Source of the DNA: Methanobacteriota archaeon
Lineage (GTDB): Archaea; Altiarchaeota; Altiarchaeia; IMC4; SCGC-AAA252-I15
Direction of reading: 5' to 3'
Length of the DNA stretch: 41,846 nucleotides
Assembly: GCA_043823295.1 (NCBI GenBank)
Contig: JBDRAY010000099.1
Location: 1-41,846, forward strand
Positions 3,242-27,839 of the stretch are shown piece after piece (within the stretch, counting starts at the first letter, position 1; every line of letters starts with the position of its first letter). The translations under genes were made by a program, and so were the position numbers. The notes below the pieces were generated by a model. The model was not told where the DNA came from. It did no database searches and saw nothing but the letters and a program-made list of their open reading frames with translations.

Positions 3242-3915
3242 TCAATAGATAAGAACCATTAATGTTGCCGGATCTCTTTTCCGAAGCTCCTCAAGGAATT
3301 CCAAGTATTCGTCGAAGGGTGCTTTATGTCCGCTTTTCCGGCTGAATAGAGTAAGGTTTCGCCTTTCATCCAACTGTTTCAACTCATCCCTGTTTTTCCA
3401 CCATTCCATCTCATCTAGATTAAACAATGCTATGCCGCCGGGTCGAAGCGTCTTGAACAATCCTGGAATAAGCTTTGGAACCTCTTCAAAACCCGCCTCG
3501 AAAGTATTGCATGAAATAATAAAGTGAAAACTGTTTTCAGGAATAGTTGCAGGCAAGTCATTCGCACTTGAAACTATGAAACGCTTTTTCGGCAGACCAG
3601 ACCGCTCATCCCACCAGAACCTCGCACCCGTCCGAAAGCTTCAACACCCTCAAGCTTGTTTAAATCCCCCACCGCCACGCCGTTTCTGCAGTTCACGTCA
3701 GCGGCCAACAATACCTCGCCCGGAAACCTCCCACCCAAATCGCTCAACAACTGCCGCACCTTGACTCCTAACATAAACTCATATCCCTCAAGATGCACTA
3801 TCAAGTCGTCTCCAAGCCACATCTTCTCCGGCTCAGCACGCTGTGATTCAACCGCAATCCTCTCCAAGTCGGCGACTGTGACGGGCTTTCTCGCGTGCTT
3901 GTGGCTTGGGCTCAT
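3242..3915 (-). pseudogene. Class I SAM-dependent methyltransferase, frameshifted and degenerate
   Basis: Two adjacent minus-strand ORFs (3915-3574 and 3556-3242) lie in different frames. The downstream piece has the typical methyltransferase core after motif I (DLPATIPENSFHFIISCNTFEAGFEEVPKLIPGLFKTLRPGGIALF). Its frame stays open upstream to about 3640 and overlaps the end of the first ORF, so a frameshift between about 3577 and 3640 would join them. The expected Gly-rich motif I reads DVNCRNG instead of D-x-G-x-G-x-G. Confidence 0.45.
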
Positions 3916-3956: not shown

Positions 3957-4547
3957 ATGGGTGATGATTTTATCCCTCCGCCTGAGGCCGTGGAGGTTGT
4001 CTCCGAGAAAGTCAGGAAAAAAAGGATTCTACCCATATTATTGGTAGTGGTTGTTGTCTTGCTCGTTGCTTTCATATTCTTCCTTCGAAGTAGCGTGGAG
4101 CCAATATCTAATGTCACCGTGTTTTCAACGTCAAGTCTCGGCGAAAAAATGTTTGCGAGCTCTCCTCTAATAGTCCCTCCCGGATTCACATTAACTGACG
4201 TGAATCACAGGAGTGCCCCCTTTAGGATGGGTAAAAATTTTTTACCTGTTGATGCGATAGAGCTTACTTACGCGAAAGACGGTGAGAAAATTATTGTTTT
4301 CATTGCGAAGGGTACGGTGGATGGTTGGAAGAGGATTATCGGAGGTAAGGGTTTCTGGCTGGAGGAGAGTTTCGGGGATAATGTTTATTCAGCCGACTAC
4401 AAATACTTTGATGAAACAATCAACTTTATCTACTGGTGGCATAACGACTCGATTATTGGGGTTAACGCCTCGGTCAGGACGGTAAACGTGATTGATTTGA
4501 CCGAGAAACTTGTTTTACACCACCCTCCAACAGAATCTCTCGCCTAG
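3957..4547 (+). CDS. Hypothetical single-pass (N-terminal anchor) membrane protein
   Basis: I prefer the ATG at 3957 (MGDDFIPPPEAVE...) to the TTG at 3906. One TM helix (ILPILLVVVVVLLVAFIFFL) is followed by a roughly 140-aa beta-rich ectodomain. No family was recognised with confidence. Confidence 0.5.
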   Translation: MGDDFIPPPEAVEVVSEKVRKKRILPILLVVVVVLLVAFIFFLRSSVEPISNVTVFSTSSLGEKMFASSPLIVPPGFTLTDVNHRSAPFRMGKNFLPVDAIELTYAKDGEKIIVFIAKGTVDGWKRIIGGKGFWLEESFGDNVYSADYKYFDETINFIYWWHNDSIIGVNASVRTVNVIDLTEKLVLHHPPTESLA

Positions 4548-4900
4548 GTTATGGTGCATATCCCACTAGTAATCTGACAGTTTAACGGGGTGGATGACCC
4601 AGTCCAGTATTGGGCTATTGCCATGCAATAGAGGCCGCACACGAGGTTTGCGGAAACCGCAGCAACAACAAGTCCAACAATAATCCATATTAATCCTTTT
4701 TTCGCCTCCGCCCGATCGTTAGGCGATTCCGCAGTAATGTACTTCAAACCCTGAATCGAAATCAATAGGACTGCCAAAGCCGCTGCAACAGTCTTGAGTG
4801 CGACGATTAAATCACTCATTTCAGTCAAATAATCTTGGCTGCTCACCAGATTGGCTGCAATCAGGAGAACAAAAACCACGACAATGATCCTTCCCTTCAT
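4544..4900 (-). CDS. VirB2/TrbC-like pilin candidate (short, secreted, two-helix hairpin)
   Basis: Signal peptide (MKGRIIVVVFVLLIAANLVSS) followed by helix-basic loop-helix: AAALAVLLISIQGLKYITAESPNDRAEAKKGLIWIIVGLVVAAVSANLVCGLYC. It is a close paralog of the 104-aa ORF at 17889-18203. It is the last gene of the operon that contains VirB4. Confidence 0.6.
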   Translation of the reverse strand: MKGRIIVVVFVLLIAANLVSSQDYLTEMSDLIVALKTVAAALAVLLISIQGLKYITAESPNDRAEAKKGLIWIIVGLVVAAVSANLVCGLYCMAIAQYWTGSSTPLNCQITSGICTIT

Positions 4901-4901
4901 T

Positions 4902-6032
4902 TTAAATCAATGCTCTGCAATCTCCAATACTTATTCCGAACGCTTCATTTAAAGCGAAGCAATAAATACCCTCAACGAGTTCTGCTGCAAGATATGCAAT
5001 GAAAACGCCGATTATTATATAGATTATACCCTTTTTTATGTCTGCCCTCTCTTGAGGATTGTCTGATGTCACGTATCTTAGCGCGTGTACGGCAATCAAT
5101 AGGACTGCGAGTCCTGCGACAACCTGGAGGAATGCTTCGTTTACTTCCCGTAGTGAATGCCCTAACGAAAATACTTCAATTGAGGGCTTTGGCCAAGGTC
5201 CTGGTGTGGGGCTTAAAGCTGCGGGAGAACTTACAGAACTTACTACAGTACTTATCGTCATTGTAGGAAGTAGAGATGCTATTGGGCTGGGCACGGGTGA
5301 ACCAGATATTGTTCCTATTGAACTCGGTATCGTAGGCACGGGGCTTGATGATGTAGCTGGAATGCTTTGGGGGGGAGTTGGTGTTTCAGGAGTTATGTGA
5401 AGACCCGTCATCGGGGGGACGGGTGTTGCCGCAGGGGAGAAGACCGGGCTTGATACTGTGGCAACTGAATGGCTGGTGGGAGGAAGAAACGTGGGGCTTT
5501 GCGGGGGAGGAAGAGTAGGGCTTTCAGGCGGTACTATTGTTGGACTCATTGGGGGTATAACTGTCGGGCTATCTGGCGGTACTATCGTGGGACTTTCTGG
5601 GGGAACAATCGTAGGGCTTGGAGGCACGACCGTCGGACTTGGCTGGGGGGTTGGTGTTCCACTTGCGTCAACATCGAATGTGCCAATATTCTGGTTTACT
5701 CCGGAATTCCAGGTGGAAGTTCCTGCGGTACGGAGACTACCTTGCGCAAAAACCTTAAAGACGACAGTATCCCCTCCAATCCCGCCTTCACTTCCCGGAG
5801 TAGCGGGGTCGTCTCCATTCACCGACATAATCCCGAAAATTCCTGGAGTAGTAACAACAAAGTCTGGGGGATAGTGCACTCCATTAATCCACGCTTCAAC
5901 AACAGTCCCAACCGGCGCGGGACTACCATCAATCAAAAGCGAACCGTAATAGCCGGCAGGGTTCGGAGGCTCTGCGGAAACACAGATTGAAACGGATAAA
6001 AAAAAGAGTAGGAAAGTGTTCAGCCACCTCAT
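4902..6032 (-). CDS. Secreted protein: N-terminal beta-rich module, Pro/Thr/Ser stalk and C-terminal VirB2-like hairpin
   Basis: Signal peptide (LLFFLSVSICVSA). A roughly 100-aa module is shared with the N-terminus of the 3918-aa protein. SPTIVPPx repeats and a long P/S/T-rich tract follow. The C-terminus VAGLAVLLIAVHALRYVTSDNPQERADIKKGIIYIIIGVFIAYLAAELVEGIYC aligns with the short pilins. Confidence 0.6.
   Translation of the reverse strand: MRWLNTFLLFFLSVSICVSAEPPNPAGYYGSLLIDGSPAPVGTVVEAWINGVHYPPDFVVTTPGIFGIMSVNGDDPATPGSEGGIGGDTVVFKVFAQGSLRTAGTSTWNSGVNQNIGTFDVDASGTPTPQPSPTVVPPSPTIVPPESPTIVPPDSPTVIPPMSPTIVPPESPTLPPPQSPTFLPPTSHSVATVSSPVFSPAATPVPPMTGLHITPETPTPPQSIPATSSSPVPTIPSSIGTISGSPVPSPIASLLPTMTISTVVSSVSSPAALSPTPGPWPKPSIEVFSLGHSLREVNEAFLQVVAGLAVLLIAVHALRYVTSDNPQERADIKKGIIYIIIGVFIAYLAAELVEGIYCFALNEAFGISIGDCRALI
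5480..5654 (-). repeat. About 7 tandem 24-nt (8-aa) repeats encoding SPT(I/V)(V/I)PPx
   Basis: Peptide: PSPTVVPPSPTIVPPESPTIVPPDSPTVIPPMSPTIVPPESPTLPPPQSPTFLPP. The plus strand shows reiterated GGnACnATnGTnGGnCTnTCnGG units. The antisense ORFs here (GGTIVGLSGG...) are a mirror artefact of the repeat. Confidence 0.85.
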
Positions 6033-6068
6033 AGTATCTCACTTAACATATTTACTTCAAAGGTTATT

Positions 6069-9000
6069 TTAATCCTTCCTGCTTGTTTTGTGAAAAATTA
6101 AGATGATTACCACTAAAAGTAGTACTAGTCCCCCAATCATAAATGCTCTTGAAAAAGACCCTATTCCCCCACCGTAAAACATTCCAACAGGGGCTCTTTG
6201 AGGGGCTGGCGCTCCAGACACCATTTCACTGAGTATTTCTGTTTCATTCAGTGCGACGTCCCATATCTTGACTTCGTCGATTACTCCTTCGAAGTAGTAG
6301 CCGTTTGAGAGGGCTCCGATCAATTGAGTGTGAGCGGCCGCAGTGTTTGCAACTATTCTCTCGCTCAGTCCCTCGAGTGTTCCGTCTACGTAAATTTTCA
6401 TGTTTCCTAATCCTCCGTATTCGTCGATGAAGAAGGCATTACTATTGTCTATGTCACCGCTTTCTCCAATGTCGAGGAAGAAGTTGTGGTAAGTCGTAGA
6501 CGGTGTTAAACCTCGCTCGCTCTCATACGATTCCGGGATTATAACGTCCTCGGAGTTCAAACTTAAGGTTCTTGCAGGCGCCGGGTGTGGTATGCCTTCA
6601 AGGTCTTCGATGTATGTTAACATCTGCTTCCTCATCCCCGTGAAGTAGCTCCAGTTGTCGCTTCGCCCGGAAAGGTCTGAGAGGATTTCCGCGCTCATGT
6701 TCACTGCGCTCGAGTATCTCGGAGTAAACGACTTATCCACACTCGCGTAAATCCCGTTCAAGTAGGCTTGAGCCTGGTTTGCGGTGGCTCCCGGATTCTC
6801 AGAAATGGCTTTCTCAAGGGTTGCGATTATTCTTGAATCTTCAATTCCCTCTCGCATCGACTCGTAGATGACTGAGTCTAGAACATCCCCACTCCATGAT
6901 GGAACAACAAGCTGGTATCCAGCCTGCGACCTATTACCCTTCAAAGTTCCAACACGCCCGTAGTATGGATGCTCTAAATCGTCGTAAGGGTGTAAACCCC
7001 ACACGTTGTAGGCGTACACGTAAACTCCAGTTCCATTAAGCGCTGAAGCATATACTCCATTTAGGAACCTGTTGTAGAGGATCTCAGGCATCGTCGCAAA
7101 GTATGTCGTATAGTATGACATTGAATCGCCTGAACGTGCAGTCTTCTCAACCTCTGTCTCATTTAACCTGCCGAGAGCGTACACCCTTATATCCAGCCAC
7201 GGGTCCATGGGTGCAAGGTTTCCTCCAGGATCGTCAGTGAAGGAGTGCTCCCACCCGCTTGCTGTTGCGGCACTCCAGCTTAGTGTGCGGTAGTAGTCGT
7301 CGATGAAGTAGACTATGACGTCTTCACTTCGCGTGCTCTGTTTATCCAGTGTGACTGTCACAGTGTTTGAACCAGGATTCAAGAAACTTCCAATACTTAC
7401 ATTGAAAATCTCTGCAGAGTAATTAAGGTCGCTTACAGTCCATCGCTCGATGTTATTTACTTTAATAGACGCTCGTACGTTTGGAGTCGCGCCGTATACT
7501 GTAAAGAATATGCTGTTTGCATTTGGGTCTGATCCGTCAGCTGATGTGGACAAAACAACCTGCCCTGTTGAGGAGGTGGGATTAGTCAGGAAGTGTCCTG
7601 CAAGCGGCTGCTCGCAGTTGGGGTAGTAAGTAACCCACGTTTCAAGTCCTGCCTCCTGAGCTAGCTTGTTCATAAAAGTAGTCCAACCCCGCTCTCCAGG
7701 ATCTACTCCCGGTTCGTCGCTGAAGCTTACTACCGGAGTGACTCCGAAGCCTGCGAAAAAGTTAGCGTATTGCTGAAGTATTGCAGGATATTCTCGCTTC
7801 AGATCTTCCGGATTGAATGTGAAGGCATTGTCTCTTACGTGTAGCATTACCTTGTCCGGCAGGATCCCCAAGTCGGCAAGTTTCTCAATCTCCTGCTGGT
7901 TGGGTGAGTAATCGATCGAGTAGCTGGCGCTTATCACAGGTTTAAAATATATCAGCGGGTTAATATCGTGTCTTTCCATGTTTGCTGCCGCAAGATCCCT
8001 TGGATTAGAAAAGTAAACTCCGGGAGTGTACGGGGAGTTGTATATATACGGGGTTGCGTCTGGCTGCTCAAGAGCAATGTCGTGGACGGTGAATTCAAGG
8101 TCGACTTGCTGGAAGTCGACTCCAGGACCAGAAATCGTGACTGTACCTGTGTATACACCCGGGTTCGCATCCCCTGGAACGTCTACTGTAAGCCAGACCT
8201 GCTGGCTTGATCCAGCCTTGACATCCATCTGATTCCCATCCTCCAAGTACCATGGATTTACGCCAAAAGCGCTTCCACTACCCGACTTCCATCTCTTATC
8301 TATTGCGACGACTTTCTGGATAGTTATGTTATCATCTGGGATTGTGTCTGAACCTTTTACTAGGTCGCTTACGCTAATTTGCACGTTACTTAAATCTTCG
8401 AAGGCGTATATCGAAAATGTCACAGGCTCCGAGTAACCTGCAACCTCAAATGCTTTGATTGTGTTGGTAATCTCGCTCGCACCAGGTATCGTATTTGGGT
8501 AAACCTTTTCCAAATAGTCTCTTGAATAAATTACGTAATTGTTTGGGTAGTCACCCGGATTTATCGTATTCGACTCTACATAATCCCACCTGTACAATGT
8601 CCTGTTCGACCTGTCAATCTCCCTGCTTGTATGAAGGTCATCGAAGCTTACGAAAGAAAGCCTGACGTAGTCTATGGGAAGCGGCTCTATGCCACTTAAC
8701 TGTTGTGGATAGAAAATCTTGAATGTGAAGTATCCGTCAATGCTTCGAAGTAGCTGGAAGGGATTGCTTTCAAGGTATATACGCAAAATCCTCCAGGTGT
8801 CGTCTCCCATACCCCCTAGTCCTCCGATTTCATGGTAGCTTATTTCTCCAAAGTCGAGTTTAGAATATACTGTGGGCTTGCAATAAGAGTTCATGTCATC
8901 GTATTGCCCGCAGTTGGTCTCATCGACAACATCCTTGTATCTAATCTCAAGGATGGCGTGAGAGTATGGGACTCCATTGCCCGAGAGGTTGAGACTGCTG

Positions 9001-12000
9001 GAATCCAACTTGAAGTGCATGCTTGTTTTCGGATAAAGTAGGCGGTACGTCGTAGACCCTTCACTCCGTGCCGCTTCCACACCATCTTCGAGGACTGCAG
9101 TCAAGTAATGCCAGACTCCGTCATTTACTGGAGTGATTCCTTGCGCATAGCTTACGTGGCTGCCGTTTCCAATTCCGAACTGTGCATCACCATTGGCCAA
9201 CCGTATCACGTATTCCTGATTTACCCAAGCCCCACTCCAAAGCCCGCGCTTGAGCACTCCCTGAGTGCCCGTACTCGTAGTCTTAACCCAAGCAGCTAAA
9301 GTGATTTCATCTCCAAGTCCTAAAGCAGGATTTGGATTAATTACAATGTTGTCGTCGACACCGTCGAACTCGTAACCCTGTCCGTACTTACCCGCAACCA
9401 ACTGCGGCGGAGTGTTCCCGTCGCCGTTACCGTGATTCCAATCAGTCAAAGTCCCATGGTAACCTCCCACAACATCATTCGCATTGCCTGAAAACGGGTA
9501 CTCCGCAACCAAACCAACAACACAAACACCACCCTCGTCAACCTGACCATCACAATCATTGTCCAAACCATCACAGGTTTCCACGCCGCCGTTTGTTGGA
9601 GTGCAAGTGGTTCCCATACAGTCCTCCGGAATTTCCCCGAAGATTGAAGTGATTGTTTCCGTCACGTTTATGATTTTATTACTCGGGTAGCCTGCCACAG
9701 TCATGGCTTCTACGATGCGTTCGTCCATAGGCCACGGCCACAACCCCTGCCCGGTCCGAACACCGTCTACGTATCGGCGGCAAAGGTTTGCGCCACGTGT
9801 CGTATTGAAGACGTTTTCGTTAGCGCCATAGGCGTCGGCGACGGTCGCAGCCTCAATATTGTTGTCGGTCGTCCAGTAACCGGGATCCTTATTGTGAAAT
9901 TGTTCTCCAATTACCGTGCTATTAGCGTAGATTAATCCTCCAGGTGGGTAAGTGCCGGCTTCCTTCCAGCGTGCTGATCCGTCTTGGACTTCCCCTCCAC
10001 TTATTGTCGGCCAAATTGGCTCTGTGGATCCAGTAGTACCGTTTACAATTAGCTTATAGTAGTGTCCGTTCCAAGTGGTTGGTATCCTATAGATATTACG
10101 TGATCCAGTATTGTAAAGAGTATTTGGTTTCCACTGATTGTGTGCTCCTAGAATCACGTTGTAATCCACTCCAGGGTGGTTTGTATACACTACATTATCA
10201 CGAATATCTGTTGTTGTAGATCCAGTCAAATAGAAAAGGGTTCTATCGTTGAAAGCAGGGATGTCCTGGTCTGCCGTCACATACGAAAGCGATCCTAAAA
10301 CTTTTATGTCTGCTGCCTGGTCCTGTTCGTCTAGTCTGTCTCGGGATATTAACCCGTAATATTGTGTTCCACTTGGATTCTGTTCTTTTAGGGAATCCCA
10401 AGTTGCAACGCAGTTTTCGCAAAGACCACCATAACTGTTATAGTACATTGAAAACGTCATTTTCGGGTCGCTTCGGCTCGTCCCCTCCCACCGACCGAAG
10501 CATCGGCGGAACGTAGTATTGTCGCCGTGCTGGGAGTTCGAATACGTCTTCCGCGCGATACCGAATCCGGCACAATCTTCAAAGGTGTTGTTATTCGATG
10601 CAGTGTGTGCACCGAATATGTTCGTATTACCGTCAAACGCATCCCAGCCGACAACCCTTCTAATTATGTTGTCGTGTGAACGCGCAATGTTGACCACGGT
10701 TGCGGAAGAATTAAAAGCATTTAATCCTTCTATAACGAAGAAGTTGTTTTGATCCAATAAAACCGGTTCATTTACTCCTGCACCATTTACCCATGCTTTC
10801 CCGTCACGGTAAGCCTTAACCGTTATTGGGGATCCGCTTGACCCGCTTAATCCGTCAGGGGGATTAATCATGGAATCAGAGCCAGTGTAAATTCCATCTA
10901 AAAGACACAGTGTGTGTCCCGGCTGGGCGATACTCCAAAAGTCTGACACCTTAAACGGGCTTGCAAGTGTCCCGGTTCCCCCGCCGGTCGGCGAGGCATA
11001 ATAGTCGCAGTCGGTAGCGGGAGAAGCGCAACCTTCATCGACAACCTCATCACAGTCATTGTCAACTCCATCACAGAATTCAGGAGAAGGAGTGCACACA
11101 TCATAGTGTTCGCAACCGTCTGTGAGGTCTACATTCGCATCTTCGTAGTTGTGGAAGCATCCGTCGAACTGGCATTCCCCGGCGACGCAGCTGGTGAATG
11201 CTTTCGGTATGTAGCAGATGTTTCCGCAGGCTCCGCAGTTGAAGGGGTCGGTCTGAAGGTCGTAGCCTTCGTCTACTGTGGAGGCGGCGGTTTGCGTGCT
11301 GCATCCCATATCGTAGTAGCTTGCGTCGCAGTCGTTGTCGATGCCGTCGCAGACTTCAAGGTAGTCGGGATTGCAAGGGCTTGGCTGGTCGGTGATGGCG
11401 TTCCATGAATAGTTCGCGGCGAGCTGAAGGGTACCTATGGGATTGCTTGTGTAGAAGTTGTTTCGGAACATTCCGGAACTGTTCTTATCGTTCATGGTGT
11501 ACGACCACCACTTCACTGGGTTTTCGTAGTTGGCTGGACCTCCCACATAGTCGAATCCGTAGGTTGAAAGTAGGTTCGGCGAATCCGCGATTTTCCTGGG
11601 ATCGCAGCTTGTCTCCTCGTGCGCCCAGCTTACCAGAGCAAAGTTTTCCCGCTCGAGGAGGTCGAGTCCATACCACGTGTCTCCTATCTGTCCTCCATAG
11701 CGGACTTGGGTGTATTCGTCATACCAGTGGTAGGGGTTGACCATGTCGTCGTACATGAGCACCTTGATGTTTGGGTTGAAGGAGTGGATGATGTCGCTTA
11801 CGTTGTTTATGAATTGTCCAAAGAGCTGGTAGTTTTCTAGTCCAAGCCTTTTCGAGCGGCTGTCGCGGTTGAAACCCCAAATTTCGTCCATGGTTATGAG
11901 GATGTAGTCGGGCGTGAGCTGCTGCATCGTTGGGCGGACGATGTTTTCCTTGTAGACTTCGAGGACTTCTGGGTCTGCGAAGCTCATCTTTTCCGTGCGC

Positions 12001-15000
12001 GTTGCAGTCGTCCTCGGGAGGAAGTCGTAGTCGACGAGTACGGTAGCCCCCGCGGGGATGCTTCCAACTGGAATCCTTGTCACAATCGCCTGCCGTCCAG
12101 CGAGCACGTCGCTGGTATTTAAGGCAGGAATCGGGTTTGTGTAGGTTAACGTGTAGTCTACGTCCCTCTGGTATTTAACAGACTTGTCGAGACTGTATAC
12201 TTCAAGCTCGGTCGCATTGGTCTCAAGGACGTTTCGCAGGGCCCCGCTTACTTCAATGATTTCGAGGTCGTCGACCCACAAGTCCATGGCGTTTGAGCTC
12301 TGTGCCTTAATCTGAATCCACAGGTATTCGACCCCACCGTATGTCGGAAGTGAAATTGTGAATCTCTTCCACACCCCCTCGTAATCCTTAAAAGTGATTG
12401 ACCTGTAGTCATAGTCCTTCATCTCCTGCCTGCTGGAATTATAGAACTTTATGATAATGTTTTGATAGCCCTTCTCTACGGGATTAATGTTCTGTTTTCT
12501 CACGTAAAACGTCAGTTGATAGAGCTTTTCAGATTCGACGTCGAAGTAGCGATCGGATTCGCTGGGGCCGGAGATAAGCGACGAACTTCTTCCGCTTGCG
12601 ATGTCGCTTGGAAGGTGAAGCTTAGCCGAGCAACTTCCTGAGTGACTTACAGTGCAGTCCCTGCTCCAGTCTCCTGGATTTGCTGGTTCCACGACGTGCC
12701 AGCCGTCGGGGAGCGCGCTGCCGACCTCAAAACCCGTGTTTAATGCCACGTTTGGAAGCGCAGGAACCTGTAGGATGTTCGAGCCGTCGAACTGGCCTGA
12801 AACGTTTTGCGCCCAAATACCCTCATAAAGGTTCGGGTTCACGGAAGTGACGTAATAAGGCGACATATAGGTTGCAGTGTGAAAATGCCTTTTCTTTAGG
12901 AAGTCTTCGCGGGCTAGCATGGCATCAATGGTTCCCTGCGATGAAGTCGGGCTTAAATACCTGCCCAATCCCATGTGGTGGAAGTTCATCTTAAGTCTCG
13001 CGAGGTGGTCGAGGAACTCCTCTGCAGTCGGATAATCCGGGTAAGTGAGGCTGCCGTATTCTCCCCTGAACTCGTAGTCTGGCCAGTCTAGGATTTTGAT
13101 GTTGGGGAGTTGTATGTTTGTGCCTTGGCTGTCAAGAAGCCATATTAGGGTCACAACTCCGTAGAATGTTCCCGTTGTCGAGTTTGCGAGCACGAGTATT
13201 TGGTCGGGTTGGGTGAGCAGTATGTATCCTTGATTGTATCCTCCGATTATCTCAGTGTTTACGTTGGCTGCTGCCGCTATTGCGAGGGCTGAAACCGTCG
13301 GATTCGTGTTGGGATTTCCGATTACTATCCTCTTCGTGCCGACTGGAGCGGCGATATCCCCTACCAAAACTGATACAGCTCCCGAACTATTTGCGATGAT
13401 CGCGTCTTTTAAGTAGTGTGCGGTGAAGTTGTCGTAAACGTCGTTTATATCCGTTATTATCTTCCAGGAGGAATCAACTTGGACTTGTGTTGTGGATATC
13501 TCTTGGATTTCCTTGGGCTCCGGGATGATTTCCGGGATGCTTAGTGCCCCGGTTATCGTGAAGTTCCATGAATAACTGGTTGGCATAAGATTGCCCGCCC
13601 TGTCCATGCATTTCACATATACTGTGTGGGGTGCGACAGTTAGGCTGGAAGACACCCAGTATGAATGGGTGACTCCCGTGCTGGTGAAAGTGAAGTCCAT
13701 GCTTGCGTAAGACTTGTCGGCGTCGATTGAACCTTTACACGTTGCGTTCTCGTCGGTTTCAATGATTAATGTGGGTCTTGTTATCCCCACATCTCCCGTA
13801 GGCAGGTGACTTAAGACTCGTGGAGGCCAGTAGTCGAGCCAAAGAGTCTCTTCTTCACCAGCATTCAGCCAGTAGCCTTTACCCGGACTCATTTCGTTTA
13901 GACTCCAGAAAATCTGGGGTACAGAATTGTCAGCCTGAAACCAGCTTCCATTGTCGAAATGCTGAAGTATCGACCAATTACCGTCAATAGACTTCAAAGC
14001 ATCCGCGAGTGCTCTAGTCTCGTTGGTTGTGAATCCAATCATGTTCCAGCAACAAAATGTTGAACCTTGGATGATCGGAGAGTAGACGGATTCCGTAGAG
14101 CCGTAAACTGTGAGCGTGTCGTCTGTATTCATCTTAAGCCAGTAGCCGAGGCCGGGAGTGAGGTGGTCAATCTGAGCGAATCCACCTTTTGCCTTCGTAA
14201 TCCAGCTTCCTGCGGATGCGTTATAGTGGGATATGATGTTCCAGTCGACATCCCCCAAGACGGAATCGATTTCCGTGTTGGTGGGGACGTTGGGGAGAGC
14301 GAACATGTTCCAGTCTTCCTTAAGATCGACGGTTGCAGTTGTTTTGGGGTCGCCGTATTTCATAAGCCATAGGTCGCAGTATCCAAAACCGCAGGTTTTC
14401 GTAGCACCCGCGATATAAATGTCTCCAGTGTCTTGCACGCTAATTCCATTACCTGTGTTTCCTTCGTTATCTCCTTCAGTCTGCTGCCGCAAGACATTTC
14501 CGTCAGAGTCAAACTCAACAAGCCAAAGGTCGCTTCCTCCTGCGCCAAAGGAACTTGTTCTCGCAGTCACATAAATTACGTCGTCTGAGAAAACTTCGAT
14601 GTCATTACCCTCTTCCGTAGAAGTCCCCCCCAAAGTCTTATCCCAAACCAGGTTTCCGTCGGAATCAAACCTCAGAATCCAAACGTCTGAACTCCCTGCT
14701 CCATACGATTTAGTGTATCCCGTAACGTAAACACTTCCGTCAGAGGCAACTGAAACACCCCTTCCGGAATCCATGTCACCTCCGCCAAGCATTTCATCCC
14801 AGATTAAATTCCCGTCTGAATCGAATTTGTGTAGTGTGAGATTATACTTCGAGTTCAATCCCTGCGGAGGTGCAGCCTGAGTTAAACCAGTAACGTAAAT
14901 GCTTCCGTCAGAAGATTCAGCGAGTCCATAAGCCTGGTCTTGAAGGCTTCCCCCGAAAGTCTTATTCCAAATCAAGTTTCCGTTGCTGTCAAACTTTAAA

Positions 15001-17825
15001 AGCCAAGAGTCATATGGGGGTACTACTACTCCAGCAACGTATACAAATCCATCTGAAGATACTAGAACGTCATTACCTAATGAGTTTCCAACTCCAGGGA
15101 TTTGTTTATCAAAAATTAGGTTCCCGTTCGAACCATATTTTAAAAGCCATAAGTCTTGGTCTCCAACGCCTTGGGTAAATATTCCTGTTGCATACACGTT
15201 ACCGGAAGAATCAATGTCAACTCCCCTACCCGCGCTAGTATTCGTCATGGAATAATGGGTTGTGCTGGGTGATTTATCCCAAAGAAGGTTTCCGTCGGAA
15301 TCATACTTGACCAGCCACAAGTAGCTAGTATCAGTTTTGTTGGTGTATTCAACCGATCCCGTTACGTACACGCTTCCGTCGGCTGCAACCACAACATCTT
15401 CCCCATAAGACCTTGATATCTCGGGCCTACCCGCACTCTCCTCCCACATAAGCTTAAAGGGGGTCTCGATGCACGAACTTGAGAAATCACATCTCTTATT
15501 GTGGGTGGCATCACAGTAAGATCCCGTAGGGCAATCCAGGGCGTCTGCACAGTCAGAAAGCCCATCCACGTCTTCATCCCCTCCAATCATGCATTTTTCA
15601 GGTGGCATGCAAAGACCGATTGAATTGCATACTAGAGTATGCCCAGCATTACAGAAGACGCCTTCATGACAATCTAGAACATCCGCACAATCGGATAGTG
15701 TGTCACCATCTTCATCCCCTTGGAGTTCACACTCCTCGTCTGACGGGATTGAGCCTGAAAACTGAACAGATGCCGAGGCATTAACTCTTCCATCACCTTG
15801 TATTTTCGATGGATACAACAAGTCTATTGCGGTTTCCTCCATGACTTTTTTCACGTCACTGGGAGTCCAATTTGAGTGTGCCTGTTTCATAATTGCCGCC
15901 AACCCTGAAACGTGGGGTGTGGCCATGGAAGTTCCGGAGATGTTGATGTGGCTTGTATCAAAACAGTGGATGTCGACTCCAAAGCCAATCCAAGCCTCAT
16001 CCCACATAGTGTCCTGAGAGGATTGTGCTGCGCAAATGAGTCCTCCCGGAGCTACAACATCTGGTTTTATGATCGTCTCTCTTGGAAGTTGAATTGGGCC
16101 GCGCGAGCTGAATCCTGAGATAATATCTGCTTTGTCTGTTGAGCCGACTGTTATGGCTTTCCTGGCGGTTCCAGGAGTTCCGATGGTCTCGTCCCCTGTT
16201 TTTATGCAACTGCTGCTTCCTTGGGGTCCGCAGTTTCCAGCCGCAACAACTGCGATGACTCCGTTTTCAACTGCAGTATCAATTGCCCGGGATGATATGT
16301 CGTCTGGCCCGCAGTTTTCATCGTAAACCCAGCATTGACCCCCTAGACTTAAGCTGATTACATCTATAATGTCATTTGGGTTGGTTTCCCCAGCATCAAT
16401 TCCATAAACGAGTCCGTCCCCGTCTAAGTCATAGGATTTTTCAATAGCCGCGATAATATTTGAAAAGCTTCCACCTCCAGACTGGCTTAAAACCTTAAAA
16501 GCGTAAAGTTGAGCATCTGGTGCAACACCATTGAGAGCACCGTTTCCTGCTGCAGTTGCAGCACAATGGGTTCCGTGGCCGTTGTCGTCCATCGGGTCTG
16601 CGTCATTGTTTACGAAGTCCCAGCCTCCCACCACCTTGCAGGATGGTCCCAGGCACCCGCCGAGGTCGGGGTGTGTGTAGTCTATGCCCGTATCAAGTAT
16701 GGCGACAGTCATATTAGCGCCGGTAATACAGGGTCTGCCTGAAACACCACAATCGTTTCCGTCCGCATCTAAAAGCCACACGTCATTAGCTTCAATCAAT
16801 TCCACAGAATCCATCAGCGTCTCGTAAACATCCAGGTTCGGATACACTCCCTTAATCTGTGGGAGAGCTCTTAACGCATCTGCTTCTTCTTCAGAAATGT
16901 CTACGGAAATACCGTTGATCACCTTGTTGAAGGTGCGTTCAACCTTAAGGTGTGGGATTGCTGATCTTATGAGGTCTAAGGTTGCATCCTGCTCCTTGTT
17001 TACCACCGTCTTTTGTGAGGCGAGCTTGTCGGGCAGAAGGCTTTGTAGTTCGGATATTTCCCTTGTTATCGAGTTTGCTTTTGAGGATGTTGGGGTTAGG
17101 GTTTTCCGCGAAGCTTCCATGAATCTTATCTCTTCTAAGGCTTCGGCTCTGACTTTAAGGGGTGGTTTCTCGTGGAATTCAATGATATATCCATCGAATT
17201 TGGGCTTTACCACTTCTTGAAGTTGCAGTGGTGAGAGTGTCGAAACCGGTGAGGGCGGGTCGTGGTATACTACTTCCCCCGGAATTGAGATTATGTTCCA
17301 ACCTGAATTCAATTGTTTTTCGATGTTGAATGTGCAGTCTGTACAGGAGAGTTCTATTGATTGAAGGTTTGCGCCCTGCCATTGTGCGGATTGCTCTGTG
17401 GTGTGTCCGTTAATCTTGAATATGATTGTTTCCCCGTATACTCCCCCCTCTTTTGTTCCAGTGCCCGGGTCGTCACCGTTTATGGACATGACACCGTATA
17501 CTCCCCTTTCCGTCACGATGAAGTTGGCGGGATAATTTACACCCCCAATCCATGCAGAGATTACAGTTCCGGGTGGTGCGGGAAACCCGTCCATTGTGAC
17601 GGTTCCGTTAAACCATGCTGGAAGGGGAGGAATCCCGGAAATGGCCAGGGGGTTTACCCTTGCCTCCGTAAACAGTCCTCCAGGAACCTTAAGCCCGAAG
17701 TCGGCGACGATCAAGCCGAAGAATATTATAATAATAATTATGGTACTAGAAATTAGGGTATTTCGTTTCGCCCTCTCTAACCCCAAAATTGTATTGTTCA
17801 TAAATGTTTTTCCCAGGGAATCCAT
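6069..17825 (-). CDS. Giant (3918 aa) membrane-anchored multidomain surface protein: subtilase, 7-blade propeller, glycosidase-like, CBM, beta-helix and LamG modules
   Basis: Uninterrupted 11,757-nt ORF. N-terminal TM (STIIIIIIFFGLIVADFGL) and C-terminal TM plus basic tail (MIGGLVLLLVVIILIFHKTSRKD). An I9-like propeptide precedes a subtilase triad read directly: D378 (VAILDTGIDYTHPDL, 16692-16694), H417 (NGHGTHCAATAAG, 16575-16577) and S633 (SGTSMATPHVSG, 15927-15929). Then come two Cys6 acidic repeats, seven propeller blades and two GWN...GYWL modules. A GH20/GH84-like signature follows (QGYILL..GTFYGVVTL..ILDWPDYEFRG..LKMNFHH), then a CBM-like jelly roll (NTGFE..GW..LWVDDLEI). There are three CDGxDNDCD motifs and a beta-helix lead-in (YYASPTGGGTGTLASPF). 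Two LamG-like modules and a DUF4091/GH123-like region (..VIYESMREGIEDSRII..) complete it. Confidence 0.85.
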   Translation of the reverse strand: MDSLGKTFMNNTILGLERAKRNTLISSTIIIIIIFFGLIVADFGLKVPGGLFTEARVNPLAISGIPPLPAWFNGTVTMDGFPAPPGTVISAWIGGVNYPANFIVTERGVYGVMSINGDDPGTGTKEGGVYGETIIFKINGHTTEQSAQWQGANLQSIELSCTDCTFNIEKQLNSGWNIISIPGEVVYHDPPSPVSTLSPLQLQEVVKPKFDGYIIEFHEKPPLKVRAEALEEIRFMEASRKTLTPTSSKANSITREISELQSLLPDKLASQKTVVNKEQDATLDLIRSAIPHLKVERTFNKVINGISVDISEEEADALRALPQIKGVYPNLDVYETLMDSVELIEANDVWLLDADGNDCGVSGRPCITGANMTVAILDTGIDYTHPDLGGCLGPSCKVVGGWDFVNNDADPMDDNGHGTHCAATAAGNGALNGVAPDAQLYAFKVLSQSGGGSFSNIIAAIEKSYDLDGDGLVYGIDAGETNPNDIIDVISLSLGGQCWVYDENCGPDDISSRAIDTAVENGVIAVVAAGNCGPQGSSSCIKTGDETIGTPGTARKAITVGSTDKADIISGFSSRGPIQLPRETIIKPDVVAPGGLICAAQSSQDTMWDEAWIGFGVDIHCFDTSHINISGTSMATPHVSGLAAIMKQAHSNWTPSDVKKVMEETAIDLLYPSKIQGDGRVNASASVQFSGSIPSDEECELQGDEDGDTLSDCADVLDCHEGVFCNAGHTLVCNSIGLCMPPEKCMIGGDEDVDGLSDCADALDCPTGSYCDATHNKRCDFSSSCIETPFKLMWEESAGRPEISRSYGEDVVVAADGSVYVTGSVEYTNKTDTSYLWLVKYDSDGNLLWDKSPSTTHYSMTNTSAGRGVDIDSSGNVYATGIFTQGVGDQDLWLLKYGSNGNLIFDKQIPGVGNSLGNDVLVSSDGFVYVAGVVVPPYDSWLLKFDSNGNLIWNKTFGGSLQDQAYGLAESSDGSIYVTGLTQAAPPQGLNSKYNLTLHKFDSDGNLIWDEMLGGGDMDSGRGVSVASDGSVYVTGYTKSYGAGSSDVWILRFDSDGNLVWDKTLGGTSTEEGNDIEVFSDDVIYVTARTSSFGAGGSDLWLVEFDSDGNVLRQQTEGDNEGNTGNGISVQDTGDIYIAGATKTCGFGYCDLWLMKYGDPKTTATVDLKEDWNMFALPNVPTNTEIDSVLGDVDWNIISHYNASAGSWITKAKGGFAQIDHLTPGLGYWLKMNTDDTLTVYGSTESVYSPIIQGSTFCCWNMIGFTTNETRALADALKSIDGNWSILQHFDNGSWFQADNSVPQIFWSLNEMSPGKGYWLNAGEEETLWLDYWPPRVLSHLPTGDVGITRPTLIIETDENATCKGSIDADKSYASMDFTFTSTGVTHSYWVSSSLTVAPHTVYVKCMDRAGNLMPTSYSWNFTITGALSIPEIIPEPKEIQEISTTQVQVDSSWKIITDINDVYDNFTAHYLKDAIIANSSGAVSVLVGDIAAPVGTKRIVIGNPNTNPTVSALAIAAAANVNTEIIGGYNQGYILLTQPDQILVLANSTTGTFYGVVTLIWLLDSQGTNIQLPNIKILDWPDYEFRGEYGSLTYPDYPTAEEFLDHLARLKMNFHHMGLGRYLSPTSSQGTIDAMLAREDFLKKRHFHTATYMSPYYVTSVNPNLYEGIWAQNVSGQFDGSNILQVPALPNVALNTGFEVGSALPDGWHVVEPANPGDWSRDCTVSHSGSCSAKLHLPSDIASGRSSSLISGPSESDRYFDVESEKLYQLTFYVRKQNINPVEKGYQNIIIKFYNSSRQEMKDYDYRSITFKDYEGVWKRFTISLPTYGGVEYLWIQIKAQSSNAMDLWVDDLEIIEVSGALRNVLETNATELEVYSLDKSVKYQRDVDYTLTYTNPIPALNTSDVLAGRQAIVTRIPVGSIPAGATVLVDYDFLPRTTATRTEKMSFADPEVLEVYKENIVRPTMQQLTPDYILITMDEIWGFNRDSRSKRLGLENYQLFGQFINNVSDIIHSFNPNIKVLMYDDMVNPYHWYDEYTQVRYGGQIGDTWYGLDLLERENFALVSWAHEETSCDPRKIADSPNLLSTYGFDYVGGPANYENPVKWWSYTMNDKNSSGMFRNNFYTSNPIGTLQLAANYSWNAITDQPSPCNPDYLEVCDGIDNDCDASYYDMGCSTQTAASTVDEGYDLQTDPFNCGACGNICYIPKAFTSCVAGECQFDGCFHNYEDANVDLTDGCEHYDVCTPSPEFCDGVDNDCDEVVDEGCASPATDCDYYASPTGGGTGTLASPFKVSDFWSIAQPGHTLCLLDGIYTGSDSMINPPDGLSGSSGSPITVKAYRDGKAWVNGAGVNEPVLLDQNNFFVIEGLNAFNSSATVVNIARSHDNIIRRVVGWDAFDGNTNIFGAHTASNNNTFEDCAGFGIARKTYSNSQHGDNTTFRRCFGRWEGTSRSDPKMTFSMYYNSYGGLCENCVATWDSLKEQNPSGTQYYGLISRDRLDEQDQAADIKVLGSLSYVTADQDIPAFNDRTLFYLTGSTTTDIRDNVVYTNHPGVDYNVILGAHNQWKPNTLYNTGSRNIYRIPTTWNGHYYKLIVNGTTGSTEPIWPTISGGEVQDGSARWKEAGTYPPGGLIYANSTVIGEQFHNKDPGYWTTDNNIEAATVADAYGANENVFNTTRGANLCRRYVDGVRTGQGLWPWPMDERIVEAMTVAGYPSNKIINVTETITSIFGEIPEDCMGTTCTPTNGGVETCDGLDNDCDGQVDEGGVCVVGLVAEYPFSGNANDVVGGYHGTLTDWNHGNGDGNTPPQLVAGKYGQGYEFDGVDDNIVINPNPALGLGDEITLAAWVKTTSTGTQGVLKRGLWSGAWVNQEYVIRLANGDAQFGIGNGSHVSYAQGITPVNDGVWHYLTAVLEDGVEAARSEGSTTYRLLYPKTSMHFKLDSSSLNLSGNGVPYSHAILEIRYKDVVDETNCGQYDDMNSYCKPTVYSKLDFGEISYHEIGGLGGMGDDTWRILRIYLESNPFQLLRSIDGYFTFKIFYPQQLSGIEPLPIDYVRLSFVSFDDLHTSREIDRSNRTLYRWDYVESNTINPGDYPNNYVIYSRDYLEKVYPNTIPGASEITNTIKAFEVAGYSEPVTFSIYAFEDLSNVQISVSDLVKGSDTIPDDNITIQKVVAIDKRWKSGSGSAFGVNPWYLEDGNQMDVKAGSSQQVWLTVDVPGDANPGVYTGTVTISGPGVDFQQVDLEFTVHDIALEQPDATPYIYNSPYTPGVYFSNPRDLAAANMERHDINPLIYFKPVISASYSIDYSPNQQEIEKLADLGILPDKVMLHVRDNAFTFNPEDLKREYPAILQQYANFFAGFGVTPVVSFSDEPGVDPGERGWTTFMNKLAQEAGLETWVTYYPNCEQPLAGHFLTNPTSSTGQVVLSTSADGSDPNANSIFFTVYGATPNVRASIKVNNIERWTVSDLNYSAEIFNVSIGSFLNPGSNTVTVTLDKQSTRSEDVIVYFIDDYYRTLSWSAATASGWEHSFTDDPGGNLAPMDPWLDIRVYALGRLNETEVEKTARSGDSMSYYTTYFATMPEILYNRFLNGVYASALNGTGVYVYAYNVWGLHPYDDLEHPYYGRVGTLKGNRSQAGYQLVVPSWSGDVLDSVIYESMREGIEDSRIIATLEKAISENPGATANQAQAYLNGIYASVDKSFTPRYSSAVNMSAEILSDLSGRSDNWSYFTGMRKQMLTYIEDLEGIPHPAPARTLSLNSEDVIIPESYESERGLTPSTTYHNFFLDIGESGDIDNSNAFFIDEYGGLGNMKIYVDGTLEGLSERIVANTAAAHTQLIGALSNGYYFEGVIDEVKIWDVALNETEILSEMVSGAPAPQRAPVGMFYGGGIGSFSRAFMIGGLVLLLVVIILIFHKTSRKD
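14350..15440 (-). repeat. Seven tandem SBBP-like beta-propeller blades within the giant ORF
   Basis: Seven units of the pattern DG(S/F)(V/I)YV(T/A)G ... (D)(L/V)W(L/I)xK(Y/F)DS(D/N)GN(L/V)(L/I)W(D/N)K. Examples: AADGSVYVTGS..LWLVKYDSDGNLLWDK, ASDGSVYVTGY..VWILRFDSDGNLVWDK and DTGDIYIAGA..LWLMKYGD. Confidence 0.8.
15788..16748 (-). other. Peptidase S8 (subtilisin-like) catalytic domain within the giant ORF
   Basis: Asp, His and Ser motifs occur in canonical order and spacing (D378, H417, S633). The oxyanion-region motif AAGN (VIAVVAAGNCGP) lies between H and S. Confidence 0.85.
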
Positions 17826-17888
17826 GTTACCTACCCTGCCACTTGCAGACGTGTTAACTTATGGGCAGGTTTAATGTAAATAAGGGTT

Positions 17889-18203
17889 TTATGGGCAGGG
17901 TGGTCCGCACGCGATTGTACCGCCATAGGCCATCTGTAAGGCATGACAGTACAACCCGCATACTAGGTTGAAGGCGAGGTATGCGACAATCAACCCTACT
18001 ATAGTCCAGATCAGCCCTTTTTTCGCTTCAGCCCTGCCTTTAGGAGACTCTGACATAAGCCATCGCAGTCCTTGAAGAGCAATCATGAATGTGGCTAAGG
18101 CTGCTGCAAGAGTCATTAAGCCTTCATTCAAGTCGAATGCGGACGCATTCCCAGTTAAGGCTGTTAGGATCATGCATGTGAGTTGGATCTTTTTTTTATT
18201 CAT
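17889..18203 (-). CDS. VirB2/TrbC-like pilin candidate (short paralog)
   Basis: Signal peptide (IQLTCMILTALTGNASA) then LAAALATFMIALQGLRWLMSESPKGRAEAKKGLIWTIVGLIVAYLAFNLVCGLYCHAL. The loop and second helix are nearly identical to those of the 118-aa ORF. It overlaps the stop of the upstream 751-aa gene by 8 nt. Confidence 0.6.
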   Translation of the reverse strand: MNKKKIQLTCMILTALTGNASAFDLNEGLMTLAAALATFMIALQGLRWLMSESPKGRAEAKKGLIWTIVGLIVAYLAFNLVCGLYCHALQMAYGGTIACGPPCP

Positions 18204-22744: not shown

Positions 22745-23686
22745 TCAAGCTTTCTGTGCTGGTGCCTCCTCCTTGGGTTGTTCAGTTTTTCCCGAAGCCC
22801 TTGCCTTGGCTTCCTTAAGCCTTCTCTCCCTCATATGCTGCGGACTCTCCTTCCACATCATGCGATACATGGTGATGGGGCTTATAAAGCTTTCAGCAAT
22901 TTCGAAGGTCTCTGTGAAGTATGAGGAGTAGAAGTTTGTAAGCTGCCCCTTAGTCAGCCTGTCGGATATGATGCCTGAAAGCGAAAGTGTTGCCTGAATA
23001 TTCTCACATCTGGTTTCAAGGTTTTCAATGATAAGTTTCTCATCTCCCTTAACCTCACCTGGAACGATAATGTAGAAGAGCCGGTCACAAATCTTGTTCT
23101 GAGAAATGTATTGCTTCATATAATCCTCAAAATGCTCGAAGTAGGCTAATGCGACCTTGTCGTCACGTTTGGAAATCTTCCTCTTGATGTGCCTGAGATA
23201 ATCGTCCAAATCAAGGTTAACGGACCTCATGGCAATCTGGATTGGGTAAGTCAAGGCATTCAGGAAGTTCAGAAAACCGTAGATGACCATATCCCTGTCT
23301 TGCTCGCTCATTACGGCAAAGTTTATGGGCTTGACCCTAATGACCCCTAATATCCGGCCATCCTTCAGGTAGACTGAGTTCCCCTTAATAGACTTTATAC
23401 CCATTATTTCTCGGGCTGCAGGTGAAAGCCAGGAAAGGGTTTTTTTAGCCCTGAAAAAGTTGAAGTAGTTCTTAATTAGTCTGTCGAGATTGAATTTCGC
23501 AAACCCTATCGTTATCAAACCTACAACGCCGATAATCATTACTTTGGCAGGCATCGGCATGGTCTCCATAAGGTAGACGTACAATGCAATACCCCCTCCA
23601 ATGCCGACGTACACTGATTCCTTTAAAGTGAACGGCCCTAAAATCTTCTCTTCGTAATGGACGTTTTGGGGTATGGCGTATGGCAT
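22745..23686 (-). CDS. PrgI/VirB3-like membrane protein with a roughly 230-aa soluble extension
   Basis: The N-terminus MPYAIPQNVHYEEKILGPFTLKESVYVGIGGGIALYVYL plus a second TM (AKVMIIGVVGLITIGFA) matches the PrgI-family pattern (VP.di...eeKi.G.lT.rq). The gene lies immediately upstream of virB4 (1-nt gap), the usual VirB3 position. The extension contains ILGVIRVKPINFAVMSEQDRDMVIYGFLNFLNALTYPIQI. Confidence 0.55.
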   Translation of the reverse strand: MPYAIPQNVHYEEKILGPFTLKESVYVGIGGGIALYVYLMETMPMPAKVMIIGVVGLITIGFAKFNLDRLIKNYFNFFRAKKTLSWLSPAAREIMGIKSIKGNSVYLKDGRILGVIRVKPINFAVMSEQDRDMVIYGFLNFLNALTYPIQIAMRSVNLDLDDYLRHIKRKISKRDDKVALAYFEHFEDYMKQYISQNKICDRLFYIIVPGEVKGDEKLIIENLETRCENIQATLSLSGIISDRLTKGQLTNFYSSYFTETFEIAESFISPITMYRMMWKESPQHMRERRLKEAKARASGKTEQPKEEAPAQKA

Positions 23687-27328: not shown

Positions 27329-27839
27329 CTTGGGATTTTCGAATCCTTGAAGCTCTTTGAGCTTCCATAATTCCTTTTTTTGCGAGTTCGTCCAATCTTT
27401 CATTTGGGATGTTGTATTTCCCTATTTTTTCGGAGAATATTTTATCGTCTTCGCGAATCTTCTTTTCGGTTTCGTTTGCCTTCCTCCCTTCCGCCCAGAG
27501 GGTTTTCCCGATTTTGAACTCGCATTTACTGCACTTTAAATTTTCTCCGTCTTCTTTCAGATACGACAAATCTTTTTCCTTGAATATCTGCTCGTCGCTG
27601 TTGCATGTGGGGCAAAGGTTTTTTTCGAAAGTTACGTTCCACATGGGAGTTCTCGTAAGCCTTTGACCCCTTAAGGTGTAGTCCTTATACTTGTGCCTTA
27701 CAATAGTCTCATAGATTTTCTGCCGTGCGTCATCTTCATTCAAGTTGTGTCTTGCAAGCCAGTTTTCTGCAAAACCCTTAATTACTTCCTGCTCTCTCCT
27801 GCTTAACGGGAGTTTTGCCGTGTATTTTTTATCTTCCAT
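27315..27839 (-). CDS. Zinc-ribbon protein (CxxC...CxxC), function unknown
   Basis: 174 aa with a CPTCNSDEQ ... LKCSKCEF four-Cys ribbon. Both termini are charged and helical. It lies 3 nt downstream of the 1654-aa gene. Confidence 0.55.
   Translation of the reverse strand: MEDKKYTAKLPLSRREQEVIKGFAENWLARHNLNEDDARQKIYETIVRHKYKDYTLRGQRLTRTPMWNVTFEKNLCPTCNSDEQIFKEKDLSYLKEDGENLKCSKCEFKIGKTLWAEGRKANETEKKIREDDKIFSEKIGKYNIPNERLDELAKKGIMEAQRASRIRKSQDEQD

Follow-up and report, generated by a model that had tools for sequence, protein, structure and literature searches.

A decorated VirB2-like pilin gene in a type IV secretion-like cluster of an Altiarchaeales-like archaeon

VirB2-type pilins have been regarded as minimal subunits that stand alone, and adhesion has been ascribed to other proteins. 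Short pilins of the T4SS_pilin/VirB2-like type form tandem arrays of MPF-FATA-like type IV secretion systems (T4SS) in Patescibacteria (PMC12102498), and in the archaeal TedC pilus the first 15 residues of the mature N-terminus are disordered (PMC9905601). The literature that we found on patescibacterial and archaeal pilins presents them as small and sometimes arranged in arrays, and mentions no fusions of VirB2-like pilins. Here we analyse a 41,846-nucleotide contig of a Methanobacteriota archaeon (JBDRAY010000099.1, hereafter the window), where a hairpin of this family closes a protein of 376 amino acids (aa) that also carries a folded head on a long stalk. We conclude that the gene is a lineage-specific decorated member of a tandem VirB2/T4SS_pilin array of a chromosomal T4SS-like system.

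Architecture of the 376-aa protein

The gene and its parts are located as follows.

4902-6032, minus strand: 376-aa decorated pilin gene, with its stop codon at 4902-4904 (open reading frame list; Pfam T4SS_pilin at the C-terminus)
5973-6032, minus strand: signal peptide, residues 1-20, MRWLNTFLLFFLSVSICVSA (read from the sequence)
5664-5972, minus strand: head domain, residues 21-123 (junction alignment, AlphaFold2 model, Foldseek)
5184-5663, minus strand: stalk rich in proline, serine and threonine, residues 124-283 (composition, repeat count, Tandem Repeats Finder)
4905-5183, minus strand: VirB2/T4SS_pilin-type helical hairpin module, residues 284-376 (PF18895, paralog hidden Markov model, AlphaFold2)

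The open reading frame (ORF) is intact over 376 codons (1131 nt), its start being the first ATG that follows a stop codon. A preliminary description of the locus had proposed a signal peptide followed by a beta-rich head of about 100 aa, and both were recovered: residues 1-20 have, on inspection, the basic n-region, hydrophobic core and V-S-A at positions -3 to -1 of a Sec-type signal, which is kept in the 142-aa ortholog P0003 (MRRQNLFLLVILSVSICVSA), and a 103-aa domain predicted as all-beta by AlphaFold2 follows. The linker had been described as some 170 aa long with seven repeats; the repeat count was correct, and the length proved to be 160 aa. This stalk is 62% Pro+Ser+Thr and 30% Pro, with exactly seven SPT[IVLF]x[PI]P repeats (residues 132-185, DNA 5478-5639) and a matching 24/48-nt period in Tandem Repeats Finder. 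The predicted mature product of 356 aa lies beyond the small-pilin range (about 60-120 aa, with no extra folded domain), the extension ahead of the hairpin accounting for 263 aa, folded domain included. The succession of signal peptide, folded head, Pro/Thr stalk and complete VirB2-like hairpin is real.

Membership of the C-terminal module in the pilin family was established in two ways, in agreement with the earlier statement that the protein ends in a complete VirB2-like hairpin. PF18895 (T4SS_pilin) matched residues 294-353 in Pfam with 46.0 bits, against a gathering cutoff of 26.6. A hidden Markov model (HMM) built from the three short pilins of the window (118, 104 and 108 aa), a comparison on which the preliminary description had staked the pilin identity, matched residues 297-369 with E = 4.7e-23 (75 bits); in a six-frame search of the window its other matches were only the training pilins and a 751-aa ORF. 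TrbC/VirB2 (PF04956, 17.1 bits) and the NCBIfam family 'Mbov_0395 pilin-like', a pilin-like family of mycoplasma integrative conjugative elements (23.6 bits, cutoff 40), remained below threshold. Two hydrophobic segments (296-323 and 330-361) flank a short, charged loop, TSDNPQERADIKKG, and AlphaFold2 predicted a helix-loop-helix there, with helices at module positions 2-38 and 42-81 (predicted local distance difference test score, pLDDT, 82). The fold is too simple to inform a structural comparison: Foldseek against the PDB returned generic helical hairpins (best E 0.7) and no solved pilin, nor did a PDB sequence/profile search with the hairpin match one. VirB5/TraC families had no match to the 376-aa protein in Pfam or NCBIfam.

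The module shares 90% of its residues with the 142-aa ortholog and 60-70% with orthologs of 115-116 aa. Over its core only two amino-acid changes in 78 codons separate it from P0003, while the flanks differ by 7-11% in DNA, and the loop motif is fully conserved. A Cys pair (..YC....C..) is conserved in the short tail after helix 2 in the pilins at 4544-4900, 4905-5183 and 17889-18203 and in P0003-P0007, which, at the level of sequence, suggests a disulfide-stabilised extracellular C-terminal knob on these pilins.

Modelling and a Foldseek search of the head, both advised in the preliminary description, gave a confident all-beta domain (31-sequence alignment, mean pLDDT 86.6, predicted template modelling score 0.79) with generic sandwiches as matches, none of them at E<=1e-3 (best E = 1.2e-3, TM-scores 0.5-0.59). 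These were transthyretin/prealbumin/carboxypeptidase-regulatory-like sandwiches in 4v4c_B, teneurin, RG lyase and SleC. A profile search retrieved 35 proteins (E from 1e-27 to 7.5e-4), small secreted proteins of, for example, Chloroflexota and Methanomicrobiales, where the motif PxxFYGTxTIxGSPAPVGTVV stands directly behind the signal peptide; P2, P5, G10, G16, A19, G22-T23-V24 and G44 are the conserved positions of the alignment. None of the 35 has a pilin module, or any Pfam domain except the dockerin PF00404 in P0033. Judged by eye, several end in a C-terminal transmembrane segment or PEF-like anchor, and dockerin-type repeats end P0033, P0026 and the head-bearing P0002, the last retrieved by the full-length search. 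The head is an autonomous surface-display module. It is also 45% identical to residues 60-157 of the giant surface protein encoded beside the gene; at this identity the two heads are best regarded as old paralogs, and a recent duplication of the giant protein's head was ruled out.

Origin of the head and stalk

The gene lies between a giant protein and a short pilin, as previously stated.

4544-4900, minus strand: 118-aa short pilin (PF18895, 43.8 bits)
6069-17825, minus strand: giant 3918-aa surface protein (Pfam, transmembrane segments, blastn, synteny)
17346-17648, minus strand: paralog of the head within the giant protein, residues ~60-160

The 118-aa pilin begins 1 nt past the stop of the 376-aa gene, an adjacency that is the same in relatives, and the two genes are likely co-transcribed. 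P0003, the best relative of the hairpin, is just 142 aa long and occurs on contigs of several origins, at least 20 in number and SCGC AAA252-I15 among them. On every one of these contigs the genes run VirB4, 757 aa, 104 aa, 142 aa, 118 aa, and the giant gene is missing. Orthologs at this position have 142 aa in L001-L008 and L012 (SCGC AAA252-I15), 116 aa in L009-L011 and 115 aa in L013. The outgroup loci with 115-116 aa hold plain pilins, again without the giant gene, and the 142-aa ortholog already has a Pro/Thr-rich N-terminal tail of ~40 aa. A genome scan with an alignment restricted to the ortholog pilins found two loci.

Aligned with L001 by blastn, the window showed 89-93% DNA identity on both sides and two blocks of its own: 5191-5970, inside the pilin gene, and 6099-17860, the giant gene (11.8 kb), which is absent from all syntenic relatives examined. 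The 128 bp between them (5971-6098, the signal-peptide region) are the least conserved shared block, with 84% identity. Head residues 25-123 (5664-5960, 297 bp) constitute an exact 99-codon, in-frame insertion relative to the 142-aa ortholog, with ..LSVSICVSAE(P/T)PN before it and the ortholog's SGTPTPQ.. resuming after it, and the Pro/Thr tract has grown by about 145 aa, replacing roughly NPINLTQEAGK of the ortholog. The preliminary description had considered that orthologs might reveal an artefactual join of two genes; what they revealed is a single gene with an in-frame domain insertion, and an artefact of this kind is ruled out, with the caveat that the exact protein occurs on this one contig. 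A frameshift fusion of two adjacent genes was also rejected, as the relatives have no separate head gene and encode the signal peptide and the hairpin, the same as here, in a single short gene. The series from plain pilin through a pilin with a short Pro/Thr tail to a headed pilin is thus the parsimonious order of events, with the gain placed in the window's lineage; import of the block from an unsampled donor is the alternative.

The last ~10 codons of the giant ORF run into intergenic sequence common to the relatives, which fits an insertion ahead of the pilin gene's own upstream region. A loss of the giant gene from the relatives, with a 3' remnant left behind, was considered and rejected, since the shared GGAAGGATTAAAATAA and its surroundings are also partly present in the outgroup L009. 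The GGAAGGATTAAAATAA region is better read as ancestral intergenic or promoter-like sequence that the giant ORF has entered. The giant protein itself has an N-terminal signal anchor, subtilase S8, LamG and GH123_N/GH20b-like domains and a C-terminal transmembrane segment; beta-propeller-like repeats and MopE-like Cys motifs were also seen.

Gene cluster and further decorated hairpins

Beyond the giant gene, the minus strand carries the following genes.

17889-18203, minus strand: 104-aa short pilin (PF18895, 41.4 bits)
18196-20451, minus strand: 751-aa protein with an embedded pilin hairpin (PF18895 29.8 bits, TrbC 27.3 bits, paralog HMM E = 1e-9)
20455-22743, minus strand: VirB4-like ATPase, 762 aa (P-loop_TraG 91.5 bits, AAA_10, CagE_TrbE_VirB)
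22745-23686, minus strand: PrgI/VirB3-like protein, 313 aa (PF12666 PrgI, 31.2 bits)
25508-27403, minus strand: 631-aa polytopic membrane protein, VirB6-like candidate (~7 hydrophobic segments; no Pfam match)
27843-32807, minus strand: 1654-aa protein with a VirB6-like polytopic N-terminus and a hydrophilic rest of ~1300 aa
34416-34742, minus strand: 108-aa short pilin outside the main array (PF18895 49.7 bits, TrbC 30.9 bits)

The minus-strand order is 1654 aa, 631 aa, PrgI/VirB3-like, VirB4-like, 751 aa, 104-aa pilin, giant, 376 aa and 118-aa pilin, so that the VirB4, PrgI/VirB3 and VirB6-like candidates lie on the strand of the 376-aa gene and within 27 kb. Relatives keep the order of these mating-pair-formation genes. 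We regard the cluster as a chromosomal T4SS-like system with VirB4, PrgI/VirB3 (for which a TraC-like match is additionally present in relatives), two VirB6-like proteins and several pilins. Relaxase and coupling-protein families had no match among the cluster ORFs scanned, nor did the VirB5 family among the cluster proteins scanned. The 631-aa protein and the N-terminus of the 1654-aa protein are paralogous (E = 4e-21), and the two proteins are taken as VirB6-like candidates from their topology and position. Both contain a transmembrane-loop-transmembrane stretch (residues ~111-165 and ~114-187) with a pilin-like loop, STNPRGRARAK and SISPSDRALAK; these stretches are in register with the pilin profile at sub-threshold scores (8.8 and 1.9 bits), by remote kinship or by chance.

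The 751-aa protein has a signal peptide, a Cys-rich/TSP3 N-domain, the hairpin at residues 255-336 (19444-19689) and a ~415-aa C-terminal domain, and its counterparts (757, 734 and 678 aa) adjoin VirB4 in all relatives. A match of this protein to the fusexin (Fsx1) family of NCBIfam (E = 0.0068, 14.8 bits; cutoff 650) was put down to its transmembrane segments.

At the other end of the array, the methyltransferase that follows the pilins in relatives (222-227 aa) is represented by two ORFs (113 and 104 aa; 3242-3915, minus strand), alignable over the first 91 residues only, with 40% identity, and looks disrupted. Synteny with the relatives stops at ~3852, where A-type ATPase genes come next and not aaRS-CBS-TGT. 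The cluster is flanked by archaeal housekeeping genes (A-type ATPase B and D, aRF1). At 38142-38966 on the plus strand, a stand-alone 274-aa ORF resembles by eye the C-terminal half of PheT, from B5 onward, in line with a split of pheT that is on record as an Altiarchaeales marker (PMC4975002). The nearest genome, from candidate division pMC2A384, is that of 'Euryarchaeota archaeon SCGC AAA252-I15', which the same work (PMC4975002) places in Altiarchaeales.

An exhaustive search of 1.84 billion representatives with the pilin-module profile retrieved 10,622 proteins at E<=1e-3. The best 150 were classified, in a ranking by total score that favours multi-module proteins: 99 have 2-17 tandem hairpins, 39 are classical short pilins and 12 are long forms, the last making up 12 of the 51 single-module matches in this set. 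Five of the long forms, the 376-aa protein included, are extended at the N-terminus and seven at the C-terminus. P0173 has a signal peptide and a beta-rich domain (Ig-like by eye) ahead of its hairpin; P0146 resembles a mis-called start, and P0150 is a truncated call of the 422-aa P0191. In the poly-pilin ORFs (P0043-P0065 and others), the 2-17 modules have ~90-110 aa each and a S/T-x-D/E-x-P-x-x-R-x-x-A-K loop. P0043 (L019:8001-13328), with 1775 aa and 17 modules, comes from an archaeal metagenome-assembled genome and adjoins ribosomal protein L39e, not VirB4. We found no description of poly-pilin proteins in the literature.

In a more distant relative with the same flanking genes (L020/L021), the three-pilin array is replaced by three decorated proteins. 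The 320-aa protein of L020 has the plan of the 376-aa protein (signal peptide, two Cys-rich domains, Pro-rich linkers and a C-terminal hairpin), the 422-aa protein is decorated at both ends, and the 532-aa protein (7413-9011) has its hairpin between a Cys-rich N-domain and a 3D domain at the C-terminus (PF06725, 52.9 bits). Domains of the 3D type are found in cell-wall lytic enzymes; we know of no peptidoglycan in this archaeal lineage. The 678-aa counterpart of the 751-aa protein in L020 (4779-6815) shows sub-threshold SLT and NlpC/P60 matches in its C-domain, and could be a hydrolase of the VirB1/PrgK type that a pilin-like hairpin anchors.

This hairpin has thus been decorated repeatedly, and the recurrence makes a function of the decoration probable. 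The search for variable N-terminal heads on such modules that the preliminary description had recommended was productive, with the 320-aa protein of L020 and P0173 as instances. Its statement that the architecture was not a described one holds for the literature, where no describing paper was found, but not as uniqueness in sequence space, given the 751-aa protein, L020/L021 and the long forms.

Filament display, its rivals and known systems

From what is known of VirB2-type pilins, the 376-aa protein is likely exported by Sec and freed of its signal peptide, and its hairpin likely inserts with both termini outside and the charged loop inside. The head would then lie outside the cell on a flexible, probably glycosylated stalk, likely up to ~50 nm long when fully extended (our own estimate, 160 aa at ~0.3 nm per residue). 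From the membrane pool, the hairpin could join the 104-, 118- and 108-aa pilins as a minor subunit of the T4SS filament, a possibility that the preliminary description had raised. Such pilins turn their N-terminus to the filament exterior, which would place the head on the fibre or at its end, as a binding module. Display at this terminus is permitted by the disordered N-terminus of TedC and by the tail already present on the 142-aa ortholog, and pilus outer diameters of 74-87 Å (PMC9905601) would by our estimate accommodate a 10-kDa head tethered by a long linker. The head type is common to the co-acquired giant surface protein, which suggests the same surface target for both. Co-assembly also draws support from the hairpin, which has hardly changed and whose ortholog is an ordinary member of the array, and we tentatively prefer display on the filament, as a minor target-binding subunit, to the other explanations.

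Several points weigh against this preference. The 376-aa fusion is on one contig alone. Exact look-ups of the 376-aa and 118-aa proteins found no identical protein on record, a metagenome scan with signal peptide and head returned only an unrelated bacterial surface protein (L016), a scan of viral contigs found nothing, and a cluster look-up supplied no names; a full-length word-index search, swamped by the low-complexity stalk, gave the protein itself and one head-only match. To our knowledge no filament has been demonstrated for any PF18895-type system, and 'pilin' is used here by homology. The predicted fold of the head is a generic beta-sandwich that points to no ligand, so that adhesion is a role that we infer.

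The same hairpin also looks anchor-like in other proteins, namely the 678-aa protein of L020, the 532-aa 3D-domain protein and those with 2-17 hairpins, and in the 376-aa protein it occupies the place of the ordinary C-terminal membrane anchor of the head homologs. This leads to the strongest rival, which we consider possible, if somewhat doubtful: a stalked surface protein whose hairpin is a two-helix membrane anchor, perhaps docking laterally on the T4SS and never polymerised, and whose 160-aa Pro/Thr stalk carries the head through the envelope or S-layer in the manner of other archaeal surface proteins. The head homologs indeed follow the order signal peptide, head, (linker) and C-terminal transmembrane, PEF-like or dockerin segment; hairpins of relatives bear enzyme-type domains (3D above threshold, SLT and NlpC/P60 below it), like VirB1/PrgK-type hydrolases; poly-hairpin proteins of up to 17 modules cannot be classical pilin monomers; and a weak, sub-threshold pilin-like motif (S.NP..RA.AK) occurs in both VirB6-like proteins. 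However, a mere anchor needs no such conservation as is seen here, where the hairpin is 90% identical to a short member of a conserved three-pilin array and keeps the loop motif and the C-terminal Cys pair, a weak point as the divergence time is short. Anchoring is in any case compatible with filament display, since pilins are membrane residents until they are assembled.

It is improbable that the gene is a recent chimera serving no selected function, or a product of faulty assembly, its head and stalk having come along with the giant gene through recombination or a mis-join and its product being neutral or mildly deleterious. Such an origin would account for the single contig, for two window-specific blocks only 128 bp apart with the least conserved shared block (84%) as their spacer, and for the disrupted look of the nearby methyltransferase gene with the synteny break at about 3850. 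Nevertheless, the insertion is exactly 99 codons long, in frame and at the boundary of signal peptide and mature protein, with SGTPTPQ continuing after it. At 45% identity between the two heads, a repeat-mediated mis-join within the contig is excluded; moreover, the 1131-nt ORF is intact, the head fold is predicted confidently, and the same architecture arose independently in L020. A pro-protein whose head and stalk are cleaved off after export, to give a free secreted head and an ordinary short pilin, is very improbable: TraA, VirB2 and TrbC are indeed made with long leaders that are later removed and signal peptidase processes TedC (PMC9905601), but here a normal N-terminal signal peptide is already present, no second hydrophobic h-region or AxA-type site stands ahead of the hairpin (..SPTPGPWPKPSIEVFSLGH..), and no protease is known for such a step, though the neighbouring giant protein bears a subtilase domain.

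One syntenic position thus offers a natural series of plain (115-116 aa), short-tailed (142 aa, Pro/Thr) and headed, stalked (376 aa) forms, and in a second lineage (L020/L021) all three array members are heavily decorated. The 376-aa architecture is one instance of a recurrent theme in the T4SS_pilin/VirB2 family. If decorated pilins enter the fibre, T4SS pili can bear covalently attached binding or enzymatic modules, which would revise the picture of target recognition in uncultured archaea and candidate phyla radiation (CPR) bacteria and provide a naturally occurring template for pilus display. Otherwise, the pilin family doubles as a membrane anchor or docking module, which affects the annotation of >10,000 representatives. 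A wider generalisation, unlikely on present evidence, is that the hairpin of archaeal (perhaps CPR) T4SS serves as a modular scaffold with both termini outside, loaded with cargo at either end (binding heads, Cys-rich domains, domains with cell-wall-hydrolase matches) or concatenated. Decorated pilins would co-assemble with plain ones and set the target specificity of the filament like VirB5, FimH or CofB in other pili, and head-bearing cassettes, here the head and the giant protein with the same head type, would recombine between strains.

Fibre modules linked to a displayed domain are known elsewhere. FimH and PapG of chaperone-usher pili join a receptor-binding domain to a pilin domain, and CofB and TcpB of type IV pili join a pilin domain through a linker to beta-domains; the design is the same as here, whereas folds and machines are unrelated, and the likeness is one of analogy only. 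In engineered F-pilin fusions, peptides are reportedly displayed by the F pili (Rondot et al., 1998, J Mol Biol). VirB2-type pilins would on that account tolerate exposed terminal additions, although those were short, C-terminal and laboratory-made and the present one is a natural N-terminal extension of 263 aa. Archaeal surface proteins with Thr/Pro stalks, together with P0010, P0018 and P0036 of the same head family, share the order of signal peptide, head, linker and C-terminal membrane segment; here the anchor is a two-helix pilin-family module rather than a single transmembrane segment or a sortase-type signal.

Among T4SS components, the VirB5 pilus-tip protein of Gram-negative systems (PMC12857230) has the role proposed here, that of a minor constituent through which the fibre offers a binding surface, but VirB5 has no hairpin and is not a VirB2 homolog, whereas here the binding module would be covalently joined to the pilin module. 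The Ced/Ted pilins CedA1 and TedC (PMC9905601) are likewise archaeal, VirB2-like and two-helical, TedC having a cleavable signal peptide and a disordered N-terminus. They are short and undecorated; the present cluster has PrgI, two VirB6-like paralogs and several pilins, and no sequence match to solved pilins. The MPF-FATA-like T4SS of Patescibacteria have in common with it the Pfam family, VirB4, PrgI/VirB3, VirB6-like proteins, divergent pilin arrays and a chromosomal location with no relaxase detected. Their pilins are described as small and stand-alone, whereas the one described here carries an N-terminal extension of 263 aa and belongs to an archaeal, Altiarchaeales-like host and not to a CPR bacterium.

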